A DNA stretch of 49,833 bases from Escherichia phage phi2013: the sequence record MT427400.3; one strand, 5' to 3'. Positions within the stretch are counted from its first letter, which is position 1; every line of letters starts with the position of its first letter. The translations under genes were made by a program, and so were the position numbers. A model generated the notes under the pieces. The model saw nothing but the letters and a program-made list of their open reading frames with translations, was not told the DNA's origin and made no database searches. Shown one piece after another: positions 7,746 through 42,945 of this stretch.

Positions 7746-7907
7746 ATGCAAAAAACTAAAGACGAATCAGTCAAAATTGAAATTAAAGTAACTCGCAACG
7801 GTGAAACCACTAGTTATAAAAAACGATTAAATCCTGGCGAGGCTGTTATTGGTCGCATTGCTGGCGTTATGATTAAGGCGCAGGAAGATGAAGCGATTCA
7901 AAGTTAA
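7746..7907 (+). CDS. small hypothetical protein (53 aa, below track cutoff)
   Basis: SD aagagga 6 nt before ATG 7746; open to TAA 7905-7907. Confidence 0.3.
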   Translation: MQKTKDESVKIEIKVTRNGETTSYKKRLNPGEAVIGRIAGVMIKAQEDEAIQS

Positions 7908-18079: not shown

Positions 18080-18748
18080 ATGCACTTACCAAATGGCGCG
18101 CAAATTTTCGTGGAAACCTCTCGCGGAGAAGAGATAGAGGCGACCGCTGTCACTAACGAAAAAAATCCTGTTGCTACAGTTGCATCTAAAGGTGACTTAG
18201 TAAAAGGTGATTACGTTATTGTAACTCAGTCAACTTGGGCTAAGATGGTTAGTCGAGTACTAATTGTTACTGACGCTCAGGAAACAAGTATTACTCTTGC
18301 TGGAATTGACACTACTGATACTCTTGTTTTCCCGGCTGGCGGTACAATGAGCTTTGCAAAAGTTACTGGTTGGACTGAGATCCCTTGCGTACAGGAGATT
18401 GGTCAGGACGGCGGCGAGCAGCAGTATTACACTTATCAGTGTTTGTCCGACGATAAAGAACAGCAGATCCCTACGTTTAAATCTGCAATCTCGCTAACGT
18501 ACACCTTCGCGCACGAATTTGATAACCCTATCTATCCTATTCTGCGTAAGCTGGATTCTTCTGGTCAGGTAACTGCGGTTCGGATGTATGTTCCAAAAGC
18601 GAACGAGATGCGCATGTGGGCTGGTATCTTGTCTTTTAACGACATTCCGTCTACGCAAGTAAACGAAATGGAAACGGTACAACTAGCCGTATCCCTGAAA
18701 GGTGACTTTACTTTCATCTCATCCACTCTGGCATCGCCTGGTGCTTAA
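18080..18748 (+). CDS. major tail (tube) protein
   Basis: 222 aa; SD aaggaga; immediately upstream of chaperone and tape measure genes. Confidence 0.6.
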   Translation: MHLPNGAQIFVETSRGEEIEATAVTNEKNPVATVASKGDLVKGDYVIVTQSTWAKMVSRVLIVTDAQETSITLAGIDTTDTLVFPAGGTMSFAKVTGWTEIPCVQEIGQDGGEQQYYTYQCLSDDKEQQIPTFKSAISLTYTFAHEFDNPIYPILRKLDSSGQVTAVRMYVPKANEMRMWAGILSFNDIPSTQVNEMETVQLAVSLKGDFTFISSTLASPGA

Positions 18749-18760
18749 ATACCATCCATA

Positions 18761-18785
18761 GGGGGCTTGCGCCCCCTTATTCATT
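18761..18785 (+). terminator. rho-independent terminator
   Basis: gggggc ttgc gccccc then T-rich. Confidence 0.5.
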
Positions 18786-18861
18786 TCTGTAAAATCATCC
18801 TATCAACTCTATTCACTTAACTTTTAACAAAAAGTGCTATCAACCAATCAGGAGAAACATC

Positions 18862-19179
18862 ATGGCTAAATTCAATTTCGTGTTGGGCCAGCTTCCAGAC
18901 TTCAAACTTCCGGTGACGTTCACCATGCCAAACGGCGAGGATGCAACTATTATTTTTACAGTGCGCCACCTTTCCAGTAAAGAAGTGCAAGATATGTATG
19001 CGAAGCAGGGCGAAATGAATGATAGCGATTTCATCACTAAGATCGCGTCAGGCTGGAATCTGGAAGAAGAATTTAACGAAGAGAATACGCGTAAACTGGT
19101 ACAGTATTATCCTTCCGCAGCGTACAACCTGACGGCAACTTACATCAAGGCGCTTGCCGGACACCGCGCAAAAAACTAA
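18862..19179 (+). CDS. tail assembly chaperone (G-like, short form)
   Basis: 105 aa directly upstream of tape measure gene; ends at slippery site. Confidence 0.6.
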   Translation: MAKFNFVLGQLPDFKLPVTFTMPNGEDATIIFTVRHLSSKEVQDMYAKQGEMNDSDFITKIASGWNLEEEFNEENTRKLVQYYPSAAYNLTATYIKALAGHRAKN

Positions 19180-19496
19180 AAAGGGCGGTTTATCTGTTAT
19201 ATCAGAAACCGCCGACAGAAGAGCAATTACGATCGGTTGGCCTCAGTCTTTCTGACTATGAAGACGAGGAACCGGAAACGATAATCGGCGATACTGAAAT
19301 GGTGAAGGCGTGGAATGTTTTTACGTCAATGCTCACTCAGTGGAGAAGTTCAGGCGCTGGAGCTTATGGTCTTGACTATAATGTTTTGCCTATGTTGTTC
19401 AAAATCTATAAAATAGAAGATGAAGAACTGGCATTGCAGGACGTTAGAATCATGGAAGCGAAAGCGCTTGAAATGGTTGCTAAGCAAAACAACTAA
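18862..19496 (+). CDS. tail assembly chaperone, -1 frameshift-extended form (GT-like)
   Basis: slippery A_AAA_AAC 19170-19176; -1 frame open with no stop from 19176 to TAA 19494-19496, in frame with track ORF 19299-19496. Confidence 0.5.
19170..19213 (+). promoter_or_regulatory. -1 programmed ribosomal frameshift signal (slippery heptamer plus stem-loop)
   Basis: A_AAA_AAC at 19170-19176; 7-nt spacer; 8-bp stem GGCGGTTT(19184-19191)/AAACCGCC(19206-19213). Confidence 0.55.
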
Positions 19497-19518
19497 GCCG
19501 CCGTTTGGCGGTTTTTTC
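19497..19518 (+). terminator. hairpin with T-run between chaperone and tape measure genes
   Basis: ccgcc gttt ggcgg then T6. Confidence 0.45.
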
Positions 19519-19534
19519 GTATATAGGGGGTTAT

Positions 19535-22408
19535 ATGGTTGATAAGGTAGCAGGTCTGTCGCTTGACGTTGATGTGTCAACAGTGCAGCGCGCCGTCAAG
19601 TCACTGAAAGAGTTTTCAAAGGCCAACGACCAGGCCGCTGATTCTATGGGTTCTTTAATCAATGAGTCAGAGGTTGCAAAACAGAAGGCCAAAGAACACG
19701 CTGAACAACTAAGGCGCCAGAGAAAAGAGTATGAGGCCGTGGAGAAGGCAATCGATCCTACAGTATCAAAAATGGAAAGGTTGAAGATTGCATCTCAGCA
19801 GCTTGATAAACTCTGGCAGCAGGGAGTCGTTCCAGATGAGACGTTTTTCCGTTTGGGTGAAATGCTGGATCTGCAAAACGCAAAACTTGCTCGCAGCCGG
19901 GCTATGCTTACGGAAGAAGGTCAGGCGGCATTGCAGGAAGCGAAAGCAAAAGAGCAGGCGGCAGCACGAAGCAAGGCGTTCATGGATGCCCTGAATGGTC
20001 AAGTTAACGCGATCGGCAAGACTCATGCTGAATTGATGGAACTGAAAGCGGCTGAGCTTGGTTTATCGAAAGAAGCAGCACCACTAATCGCAAAACTTAA
20101 AGATCAAGGCCGAGCTATGAATGCAGCAGGTATTAGCGCCGGGGAATACAGGCAAGCAATGCGAATGCTTCCTGCACAGATTACCGACGTCGTTACATCT
20201 CTTGCGTCCGGCATGCCAGTTTGGATGGTTGCCATCCAGCAAGGCGGTCAAATCAAGGACTCGTTCGGCGGGATTGGTAATACGTTTAAAGTGTTGCTGA
20301 GTTATATTAATCCAGTCACAGCAGGTATTGGCGTTCTTGTTGGTTCGTTAGGTCTTCTGGCGAAAGCTGGTTATGACTCTTACAAGTCAATAACTGATAT
20401 TCAGAATGCGCTTATTGAGACTGGCGGTTATGCAGGTGTTACGGCTGAAGATCTTGATTCAGTGTCTAAAAAGATCGCGCAGACAAGTAACTCAACCATT
20501 GGGAGTATTCGCGAGATTGTAACGGAGTTGGCAAGTTCTGGTAAGTACACCCGCGAGCAGATCCAGAACATCACTAAGGCTACCGCAGAGTGGTCAGCGT
20601 CAACAGGAAAATCAGCAAGTCAAATTATTTCTGAGTTCGACAAAATCGCAAGCGATCCGGTAAAAGGTCTGAAGAAGTTAAATGAGCAATATAATTTCCT
20701 TGAAAAAGGGCAGCTTACCTATATCGATACATTAAGCCGGACGAAAGGAGAAACTGAGGCAGTATCTGAAGCAACGAAATTATTCGCCGACGTAATGGAA
20801 AAGCGAATGAAGTCAATAGCGGATAATGCTACCCCTCTGGAAAAAATGTGGAACGATATTAAACAATGGGCTTCGGACGCGTGGGGATGGGTGGGTGATC
20901 ATACACTTGGGGCGCTAAACCTGATTATTGATGTGGTTCAGGGTACAGTGATTCAGGTAAAAATGATTCTTGCGAAAGGTGACGAATACATCTCAAACTT
21001 TATTGCCTCTGCGATTAAGGCTACACAGTCTCTTCCTGGTATGAGTGATTTCGGCGCTGATGTACTGAAGGAGCAGGAGAATATTGTAAAAAGTTCTCGC
21101 GACAACTACGATCAGTTATCTTCAGAGCTTGACGCTATTAACGCTCGTGTAGAAAAAGGAGAGATGGGATACATTGAAGCAATGAGGCAGCGTCGCACTC
21201 TTGAAAAGCAGTACAGCGAGGAAACTAAGGAGGCAATAAGGAAAGAAGCAGAAGAGATCGAGAAGCGAAACCGAGAACGAAATAAGCAGTCGAAAATTGT
21301 ACGCTCACCGACAGAGCAATTCGACAAGGAGTTAATTTCACTCAAGGCTCAACTTAAGGTATTGCAGGAGCACAAGGAGATCGGGCAAAAACTTTCCGCA
21401 CAGAGAAAGGCGTTGTTTACAACTGAGGCTACGATCGCTGTTCTTCGCGAAGCCAGCTCTAAGCGTCAGTTGTCTGCGGAAGAAAAAGCGTTGCTGGCAA
21501 GTCAGGAGAGAGTTATTGAGCTTGCAAAACAGAAGGCCGAGATTGGCGATCAGATTGTTAAGCAACAACAGTTGAATGATCTTACCGATAAATCTCTGAA
21601 GTTTGTCAATGAGATGACGGCGGCGACAGAACAGCTTAACGCGTCACGCGGTCTTAGCACGCGCGAAATGGAACGACAAGCGGAACTGGCTAAAATAACC
21701 ACTGATTACATCAACTCTGGAGGTAGTGAGGGAGACGAAAAACTCCAGAACATGATTAAGGCGCAAAATGATTACTACGCTGCGGAAGATGCCAAGCGTG
21801 CTGACTGGTTAGCTGGTGCTGAAAGTGCTTTTGCTGATTACGGTGATGCAGCAATGGATATGTACGGCAATGTTAACGATATCGCGTCAAGTGCACTTAA
21901 CGGAATGTCAGATATGATGGTTCAATTTCTGACCACAGGAAAAGCGAACTTTGAGGACTTTGCGAAAAATATCATCGGCATGATTATAAAGATGATTGCT
22001 CAGATGGTAATCTTCAATACGATCTCAGGCATGATGGGCGGTAAGACGTGGAGCTTTGCTGGAGGGGCGTCGTCTGGTGCTTCTGCGGCATCACAGGCAA
22101 CCCCTACACCTGCCGCTTCTGTTTTTAGATCTGCATCATCCGGCGGGGCCGCTGTATCACTTGCTGCCGCAGCGGGTAGCGTGGCAACCTCTGGATTCAA
22201 CGCATCAAACTCGGCGCCAAAGGCGATAAACCATTCAGGAGGTGGAACGGTAGTTGATGTTAGTGGAATGGAGGTGAGAGTTGACAACGGCTCAGATCCG
22301 AGGGGGATTTCTCAGGGTGTAGAAATGATGTTCAAAAAGATGATTCGCGAGTCTTGTTCGCAGGGCGGCGAGGTTTATAATTACATTCAGGAAAAAACAG
22401 GAGGCTAA
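19535..22408 (+). CDS. tail tape measure protein
   Basis: 957 aa, the longest helical/coiled-coil-rich ORF; SD aggggg; position after chaperone. Confidence 0.85.
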
Positions 22409-42056: not shown

Positions 42057-42544
42057 TGAGCTTAAAAAATAACGTTATAGGCGCATCGATCGGGGCTGCT
42101 TTGACGTTGACGCCTACCCTGCTGGAACGAATCGAAGGGATAGAATACGAGGTGTATTACGATATAGCCGGAGTCCCTACCGTATGCAGCGGAATAACCG
42201 GGCCGGACGTCATACCTGGTAAGAAATACACTAAGCGAGAATGCGATGCATTGCTGATAAAACATATCGGCGTCGCTCAGCGATACGTTGACAAAAAGGT
42301 GAATGTTGATATTCCGGTAACGATGCGCGCGTCACTGTACAGCTTCACTTTCAACGTCGGTACTGGCGCGTTCGGATCTTCTACAATGCTTAAGCTAATA
42401 AATCAGAGTAAGCACAAGGAAGCGTGCAATCAGTTATGGCGATGGGTATACTACTACAACCCAAAAACCAAAAAGCGCGAAGTGTCTAGAGGACTAAAGA
42501 ACCGACGCGCTGAAGAATACGCGTATTGCGTTAAGGAATTATGA
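42056..42544 (+). CDS. endolysin (GH24 T4-lysozyme-like)
   Basis: EG...Y.D..G..T..G catalytic pattern ([23 protein letters not shown]). Confidence 0.8.
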
Positions 42545-42945
42545 TGAAACTGAAGAAAACGTGCATTGCGATTGCAGTGGCTGTTGGCGTTATTTCCCTA
42601 TCCGGTTGTTCGACGGCATCTGCCCTGAGCGGTTTAATCGGATCTAAACCGGAAGTTACAGCACAAATCGGAGAGGAGAACACAAAGCAATTAGCAGGAG
42701 TAACCGCAAAATCCGAAGATAAGCGAGATGTTAAAGTTGAGAAGTCCAATGTAGGAAAGATTGACTCTTCCTTGAAGAAGTCAATTGAAGTGTCAACCAT
42801 TAAGGCTAACACGGTTAACGCTGAAAGCATCACAGTAACAAAACCGGAAAACTGGTACGATGCTATCGTTGGCTGGATTCTCGTTTTTATCGGTCTATTG
42901 CTGGTTTATTTTTCACTTCGTAAGGACGAAAAAAAGGAGGCTTAG
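42541..42945 (+). CDS. unimolecular spanin (lipoprotein signal plus C-terminal TM)
   Basis: N-terminus [23 protein letters not shown] (lipobox LSGC); C-terminus [13 protein letters not shown] transmembrane; follows endolysin. Confidence 0.7.

Follow-up and report, generated by a model that had tools for sequence, protein, structure and literature searches.

The locus described here raises the question of whether translation of a phage tail assembly chaperone gene ends at its stop codon, or whether some ribosomes change frame immediately before this codon and thereby produce a second, longer protein from the same start. In the window (i.e. the whole 49,833-nt stretch of Escherichia phage phi2013 DNA that was analyzed, accession no. 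MT427400.3), which represents a Tunavirus (Drexlerviridae), the chaperone ORF terminates directly behind the heptamer A_AAA_AAC. The original prediction placed a programmed -1 frameshift at this site and considered both the heptamer and an 8-bp stem-loop located downstream to be unusually textbook. Comparative sequence analysis was used to establish how the locus is organized, which of its elements are conserved, and which explanations of the arrangement agree best with the data.

Organization of the chaperone locus

The 2.5-kb region surrounding the putative frameshift site is 100% identical to the corresponding DNA of Escherichia phages JMPW1 and IME167 and 95% identical to that of T1; DNA-level matches to this region were found in 107 phage records. 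Pfam analysis revealed the gene order major tail protein – Phage_TAC_4 chaperone – DUF1799 in the -1 frame – tape measure protein, with two overlapping ORFs between the major tail and tape measure genes. The earlier assignment of the locus to the G/GT type, lying upstream of the tape measure gene, was borne out by this order.

All features of the locus are encoded by the + strand. The upstream neighbor (18080–18748) codes for the major tail (tube) protein (PF08813 Phage_tail_3, E 1.4e-70), annotated as such in T1 and JMPW1. A Shine-Dalgarno sequence, AGGAG (18850–18854), was recognized by direct reading and would serve both G and GT; the T1 record contains an annotated ribosome binding site at the homologous position for both CDSs. 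The zero-frame product G (18862–19179), a tail assembly (tape measure) chaperone of 105 aa, matches PF08748 (Phage_TAC_4) over its full length (E 2e-37; 128.6 bits, gathering threshold 21.1), as well as phrog_569 and phrog_17368. T, the -1-frame extension (19176–19496; 106 sense codons and TAA), matches PF08809 (DUF1799) within the fusion, at fusion residues 130–205 (E 2.4e-11; 44.1 bits, gathering threshold 26). The predicted frameshift fusion GT (18862–19496) would comprise 211 aa, and its T1 homolog is annotated as a two-piece join. The downstream neighbor (19535–22408; start position as in the RefSeq annotation of JMPW1) encodes a lambda-H-like tape measure protein (PF06791 TMP_2, E 7.7e-74; PF09718, E 9.5e-26).

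The phrog_17368 family is a single 213-position profile, to which G aligns at positions 1–107 and T, contiguously, at positions 109–212. Fused versions of exactly this junction are therefore already present in phage protein databases. A PDB sequence search with GT returned only noise (E of at least 0.08), i.e. no solved homolog is detectable by sequence.

An intrinsic terminator-like hairpin with a U-tract (19495–19520) is located between T and the tape measure gene, ahead of the ribosome binding site of the latter, and a rho-independent terminator is annotated here in T1. The position of this hairpin and U-tract after the T stop is conserved across Drexlerviridae genera, with differing stem sequences. 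A second terminator-like hairpin (18758–18780) follows the major tail gene. With such hairpins on either side, the G/GT cistron appears to be bracketed by attenuating terminators.

The zero-frame codons of G end with GCA AAA AAC TAA. Both the coordinates and the phase originally proposed were confirmed by reading and translating the sequence: the heptamer A_AAA_AAC (19170–19176) lies in the X_XXY_YYZ phase, with the stop codon TAA (19177–19179) directly 3′ of it, and both elements are conserved in the family. The first codon read in the -1 frame, CTA (Leu), takes its second and third bases from the T and the first A of the stop codon, and this junction Leu is invariant in an alignment of 12 GT sequences. 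The -1 frame is open from position 19095 to a TAA at 19494–19496; from 19176 onward it comprises 106 sense codons and the stop, in agreement with the 107 codons predicted, and it includes the ORF 19299–19496, to which it had been linked.

Within window ORFs of at least 100 aa, 37 in-frame X_XXY_YYZ heptamers were identified. Only the A_AAA_AAC at 19170–19176 is associated with a -1 frame running far past the zero-frame stop (105 codons, compared to 10 for the runner-up), which indicates that the arrangement is more than a chance occurrence. The +1 frame was rejected as an alternative, as it closes after 25 codons. Inspection by eye of the 30 nt preceding the heptamer identified no GGAGG-like element, and a dnaX-like upstream Shine-Dalgarno stimulator was therefore discarded.

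The sequence AAAAAACTAA occurs only once more in the window, at 7750–7759, where the TAA is out of frame; this copy was considered a chance match. It is placed at the 5′ end of a small ORF, 7746–7907 (ATG CAA AAA ACT AAA).

Conservation of the slippery site and of the -1 frame

A tblastn search revealed the presence of a G homolog in 1022 phage records. Three sets of relatives were compiled: (i) 16 annotated GenBank/RefSeq examples, spanning Tunavirinae, Tempevirinae, Rogunavirinae, Braunvirinae, Webervirus, Kyungwonvirus, Nouzillyvirus, Dhillonvirus and a Pseudomonas phage, (ii) 95 IMG/VR loci and (iii) 49 loci from bacterial genomes, mostly prophages. Both G and T were located by local tblastn in 158 loci (phage genomes, IMG/VR contigs and prophages), and in 156 of them T is in the -1 frame relative to G.

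The two exceptions are a contig with indels in G and a Photorhabdus prophage with a longer A-run. In the T1-like contig (IMGVR_UViG_2974611450_000001, positions 1500–1820) the indels break the G frame, and the heptamer, stop and T frame are intact; the broken G is probably the result of an assembly or sequencing error. The prophage of Photorhabdus australis DSM 17609 (locus positions 770–790) carries eight A residues, one base extra, which places G and T in one frame with a K-K-L junction. The N-terminus of its G appears truncated, and the fusion is explained either by decay of the prophage or by a sequencing error in the homopolymer.

A heptamer of the form X_XXA_AAC abuts the G stop codon (TAA, TGA or TAG) in 94 of the 109 unique junctions, represented by A_AAA_AAC (85 junctions), G_GGA_AAC (7) and T_TTA_AAC (2). 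Although the first heptamer position falls on the wobble base of an upstream codon that specifies different amino acids in different relatives (E, V, A, T, Q, R, L), it matches X without exception (A in 85/85, G in 7/7 and T in 2/2). Such a match is not predicted by protein coding, and is explained if the tRNA reading XXA has to re-pair. The codon AAT, which is synonymous in both frames (Asn in one, TTA for Leu in the other), was never seen at the end of the heptamer among the 109 unique junctions. The slippery site, situated in the overlap of the two ORFs, is conserved among relatives beyond protein-coding needs, and the heptamer–stop core is kept across proteins whose identity falls to under 30%. 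The -1 frame of HK578 is closed until 7 nt ahead of the stop, i.e. until the heptamer itself, so that a shift would be possible nowhere else in this phage.

The -1 T frame is also kept in a few phages without a canonical X_XXY_YYZ heptamer, namely Webervirus FairDinkum and Shelby (GCA AAA GTY TAA; locus positions 1216–1227 in each) and Rogunavirus phiKP26 (GCA AAG GTC TAA; locus positions 1204–1215). At these sites (A_AAA_GTY and A_AAG_GTC, respectively) only the tetramer A_AAA or A_AAG is left for a single-tRNA slip. The canonical heptamer is therefore not the only workable solution.

The coding character of the two frames was assessed using 62 unique Drexlerviridae-like sequences. Upstream of the heptamer, column entropies at codon positions 1, 2 and 3 of the G frame are 0.93, 0.68 and 1.67, respectively; the corresponding values for the -1 frame in the 30 codons right after the stop are 0.60, 0.52 and 1.43. 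The codon-phase signature thus switches frame exactly at the stop codon, and sequence conservation of the -1-frame product (LKRAVYLxYQxxPTDxELxAxGLxRxDYE) starts with the junction codon.

The gene order, the pattern seen in approximately 158 relatives, the -1 coding signature beginning at the stop and the joins annotated in T1 and Shelby support the programmed -1 frameshift proposed for the tail chaperone. On the basis of these comparisons, we estimate at roughly 90% the probability that GT is made by -1 ribosomal frameshifting of the lambda G/GT type at positions 19170–19176.

The frameshift product itself is already known, as it is annotated in T1 and in Klebsiella phage Shelby. In the T1 record (accession no. 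AY216660.1), CPTT1_039 is described as a two-piece CDS, “tape measure chaperone, frameshift product”, at homologous coordinates (locus positions 2364–2998), and an exact-sequence look-up identified its product as the 211-aa protein AAP50000.2. This protein differs from the GT of the window by 2 residues, and the T1 chaperone pair (AAP49960.1 and AAP50000.2) has a heptamer, stop, hairpin and spacer identical to those of the window. The same type of look-up did not find the window's own GT, in either junction version, in the protein collection. The RefSeq record of JMPW1 has no join and lists gp38 and a shortened gp39 as separate genes; in this record, as in the majority of the 16 related GenBank/RefSeq entries sampled, T is given as a separate short ORF or a hypothetical protein, or is absent. 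Since the join is known in T1 and missing in JMPW1, this is an annotation gap and no discovery. The practical value of the analysis lies in correcting it, i.e. in annotating the 211-aa GT as in T1 and Shelby. The results leave the current understanding of such systems unchanged and add a well-populated G/GT example, comprising about 1000 phage records.

The downstream hairpin

A stem-loop that is a candidate frameshift stimulator begins 7 nt after the heptamer (19184–19213, + strand). The arms proposed originally, GGCGGTTT (19184–19191) and AAACCGCC (19206–19213), are present at the expected spacing, but RNAfold prefers a slightly different pairing to the simple 8-bp stem: 7 bp (19184–19190 with 19207–19213), a 2-nt bulge, 4 bp (19193–19196 with 19203–19206) and a 6-nt loop, which extends the structure into the supposed 14-nt loop. 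It has a folding energy of -16.1 kcal/mol (z = -4.88), a stability not reached by any of 200 dinucleotide-shuffled sequences, and the hairpin persists in a 161-nt fold. The site consequently displays the elements of a stimulated -1 frameshift, i.e. an in-frame X_XXY_YYZ heptamer and a stable 11-bp bulged hairpin behind a 7-nt spacer (the range being 5–9 nt).

Other roles and forms of this structure were considered and rejected. It is not a transcription terminator, as no U-tract follows it and it received no call in a terminator scan; the real terminator is found after the T stop. A pseudoknot was dismissed because the loop UUAUAU has no downstream complement and the 161-nt fold remains a simple hairpin. 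The arms GGCGGTTT and CCGCC are shared by the frameshift hairpin and the T1 terminator; since the terminator stem is of unrelated sequence in relatives retaining the hairpin, the resemblance was judged coincidental.

The distribution of the hairpin in the family was examined by folding 45 nt starting 4 nt after the heptamer, with z below -2 taken as significant. Significant structure was detected in approximately 30% of the 109 unique junctions, essentially those of the Tunavirinae/Tempevirinae-like clade, and the hairpin is missing in about 70% of the unique family junctions that keep the heptamer. It is absent in Braunvirinae, Rogunavirinae, Kyungwonvirus and KMI8, all of which retain the heptamer and stop. 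The description of the site as textbook applies to the form of the heptamer; it does not extend to its strength in E. coli (0.16–0.74%), nor to the hairpin, which is clade-specific and lies outside the conserved core.

In an alignment of 37 sequences (36 Drexlerviridae-like and HK578), 78% of the stem cells are paired, compared to 31–50% when the partner is slid by 1–3 columns. Most double changes in the stem come from clades in which its remainder does not form, genuine compensatory substitutions are scarce and the sequences share phylogenetic history; hence, the support from covariation is weak.

Both arms of the hairpin are coding, and the structure vanishes where the KPP motif is replaced (by REP in Rogunavirinae and SDP in Braunvirinae). 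Since GCG, CTG and CCG are common E. coli codons, the hairpin could simply result from the conserved residues R-A-V-Y...K-P-P together with the codon bias of the host, having no role in frameshifting, and its significance in only ~30% of the unique junctions points in the same direction. Codon usage in the hairpin clade (34 sequences encoding AV...KPP) argues against this explanation. The stem Pro is encoded by CCG in 33 of the 34 sequences, whereas the third base of the next Pro codon, just outside the stem, varies freely (A in 9, G in 12, C in 10 and T in 3). Similarly, the stem Leu is CTG in all 34 (entropy 0.0), compared to third-position entropies of 0.6–1.8 for other invariant Leu residues, and mean third-position entropy is 0.50 in the stem versus 0.94 for the same amino acids elsewhere. 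The stem Lys alternates between AAA and AAG (17:17), both of which pair with U, and variation is concentrated in the loop and bulge. The low energy z-score and the formation of GGCGGCG/CGCCGCC at the same place in HK578 are also difficult to reconcile with a mere coding by-product, which we regard as a possible but doubtful origin of the structure. We read the codon pattern as reflecting real, although lineage-restricted, selection on the RNA structure, the hairpin being probably a candidate accessory stimulator rather than a family-wide requirement.

Proposed mechanism and competing explanations

According to the frameshift model, most ribosomes translating G would terminate at the TAA at 19177, releasing the 105-aa G, and a small fraction would slip back by 1 nt on A_AAA_AAC. 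In this slip, tRNA-Lys would move from AAA to AAA and tRNA-Asn from AAC to AAA, after which CTA AAA AGG... would be read in the -1 frame as far as 19496 to give the 211-aa GT with C-terminal DUF1799. Two-tRNA slippage would yield the junction ...RAKN-LKRAVY.... Judging from lambda, the tape measure protein may be coated by G together with the G portion of GT, the scarce T domain may recruit the major tail protein, and the slip frequency would set a fixed, low GT:G ratio. The hairpin 7 nt downstream probably boosts an intrinsically weak heptamer in the T1-like clade, and the adjacent stop codon may also contribute to the shift. We infer the ribosomal, two-tRNA nature of the slip, its efficiency, its stimulation by the hairpin and the functions of the proteins. 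The literature searched contained no protein detection or genetics showing that G and GT are both made and needed in T1-like phages.

The junction in the T1 record is written K-K-L (...HRAKK-LKRA...), whereas simultaneous slippage after decoding of AAC predicts K-N-L. The K-K-L residue in AAP50000.2 is an annotation choice and no measurement.

In E. coli reporters, A_AAA_AAC directs 0.163% frameshifting without a stimulator, 0.189% with the IS911 stimulators and 0.739% with the IS3 pseudoknot; the respective values for A_AAA_AAG are 0.29%, 4.26% and 39% (PMC4066793 supplement). Re-pairing from AAC to AAA is poorly tolerated by bacterial ribosomes (PMC4066793). The weakness of A_AAA_AAC in reporters suggests that the efficiency of GT synthesis may be well below the ratio of about 1:30 known from lambda, unless the stop or hairpin adds more than the reporter stimulators do. 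In lambda, where G:GT is approximately 30:1, the purpose of the system is to keep this ratio low for GT (PMC5009743), which makes a weak heptamer plausible for chaperone function.

The locus resembles lambda gpG/gpGT (G_GGA_AAG) in its place between the tail tube and tape measure genes and in the combination of an abundant short chaperone with a rare -1 fusion carrying a T domain (PMC5009743). The proteins belong to other Pfam families than those of lambda, TAC_4 and DUF1799 being the ones found in the window. The lambda heptamer ends in the highly shift-prone AAG, that of the window in AAC, which is weak in E. coli; moreover, the window, in contrast to lambda, has a stop directly adjoining the heptamer and a hairpin behind it. 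Lambda G/GT is not known to need a downstream structure.

A parallel as regards the heptamer is insA-insB′ of IS1 (A6C motif), in which A_AAA_AAC, placed close to the 3′ end of the first ORF, is functional on E. coli ribosomes and leads to a rare fusion. A_AAA_AAC is a proven -1 site in IS1 in E. coli, with a reported efficiency of ~2% or less (PMC4066793, PMC12428005). The IS1 product is a transposase, that of the window a virion assembly factor, and Sharma et al. list no established stimulator for IS1 (PMC4066793), whereas the window site has a significant hairpin. A likeness in heptamer use also exists with the G-T system of archaeal hosts, in which the same heptamers serve G-T expression (PMC5009743).

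The weakness of the heptamer in the standard A/P-site assay is compatible with a different, termination-coupled course of events (a “shifty stop”). Here, AAC would occupy the P site and UAA would await release factor in the A site; tRNA-Asn (P site) and tRNA-Lys (E site) would re-pair, and the stop, not the hairpin, would be the main stimulator. Consistent with this, the stop abuts the heptamer in those 94 of 109 unique junctions across very deep divergence, involving all three stop codons and including the clades without a hairpin. The adjacency may, however, also reflect coding economy, as it avoids a dual-coding overlap and without the stop G would gain ~33 codons. The 7-nt spacer is as expected for tandem slippage in the A and P sites, and the hairpin is only 4 nt from a stop located in the A site. 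Both models give the same K-N-L product, so that sequence data do not separate them; on balance, we consider termination coupling rather unlikely.

A broader, speculative form of this idea, which we think unlikely, is that the invariant core of the family is X_XXA_AAC fused to a zero-frame stop, rather than heptamer plus hairpin, with slow decoding by release factor rescuing a nearly inert heptamer in a termination-coupled -1 shift. If this were true, lineage-specific additions (the T1-clade hairpin) or replacements (Webervirus A_AAA_GTY) would tune the GT:G ratio. A heptamer weak in E. coli and flush with the stop provides a natural series (sites with a hairpin, without a hairpin, and non-canonical), well suited to studying the means by which bacterial ribosomes are set to a low and constant level of frameshifting.

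It was also considered whether T could be an independent gene with its own start, requiring no recoding. Most GenBank/RefSeq records annotate it in this way, and ATG-GTG is found at codons +41/+42 in many relatives. The candidate starts are ATG 19299, ATG 19329 (gp39 in RefSeq JMPW1) and upstream non-ATG codons (annotated in SH2, DTL and KMI8). These starts vary by genus; the +41 start is absent in ESCO41, two Webervirus phages, HK578 and PS-1, and no ATG, GTG or TTG start for T is conserved among the genera compared, candidates elsewhere being likewise not conserved. No Shine-Dalgarno sequence precedes 19299. The 40 codons ahead of this ATG (19177–19298) display the -1 coding signature and encode conserved protein, yet the -1 frame contains no ATG, GTG or TTG before codon +41 in the window, T1, BananaBelafonte and tinuso. 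Independent initiation cannot explain the conservation of these 40 codons, and it leaves unaccounted for the conserved heptamer with its matching first base. Independent initiation was therefore rejected as highly improbable. The arrangement agrees with that defining the tailed-phage G/GT class (Xu, Hendrix and Duda type), in which the downstream ORF in the alternative frame has no initiation signal of its own, and on the sequences compared T (DUF1799) appears to be reached only via the frameshift, being otherwise untranslatable.

Transcriptional slippage on the A6 run, adding one A to some mRNAs and giving a K-K-L junction, is scarcely credible: although an A6 run is present here and A7 in many prophage relatives (GAA AAA AAC), an extra genomic A fuses G and T in frame in the one Photorhabdus prophage, and the T1 record joins its product as K-K-L, efficient slippage of this kind in E. 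coli needs runs of ~9 or more, the runs in G_GGA_AAC and T_TTA_AAC (only 3 nt) are too short for useful polymerase slippage and fit tandem tRNA re-pairing exactly, and the requirement for C after the run, with the stop right behind it, ties the pattern to codon phase.

A further heptamer was noted elsewhere in the window. In ORF 42541–42945 (134 aa), two codons ahead of the stop, A_AAA_AAG occurs in frame at 42930–42936; this heptamer is very prone to frameshifting in E. coli. The encoded protein has a lipoprotein signal and a C-terminal TM segment and resembles a unimolecular spanin; the gene is preceded by a lysozyme-like ORF. GGAGG and a terminator hairpin are located downstream of this heptamer, and the -1 frame is open for only 13 codons.
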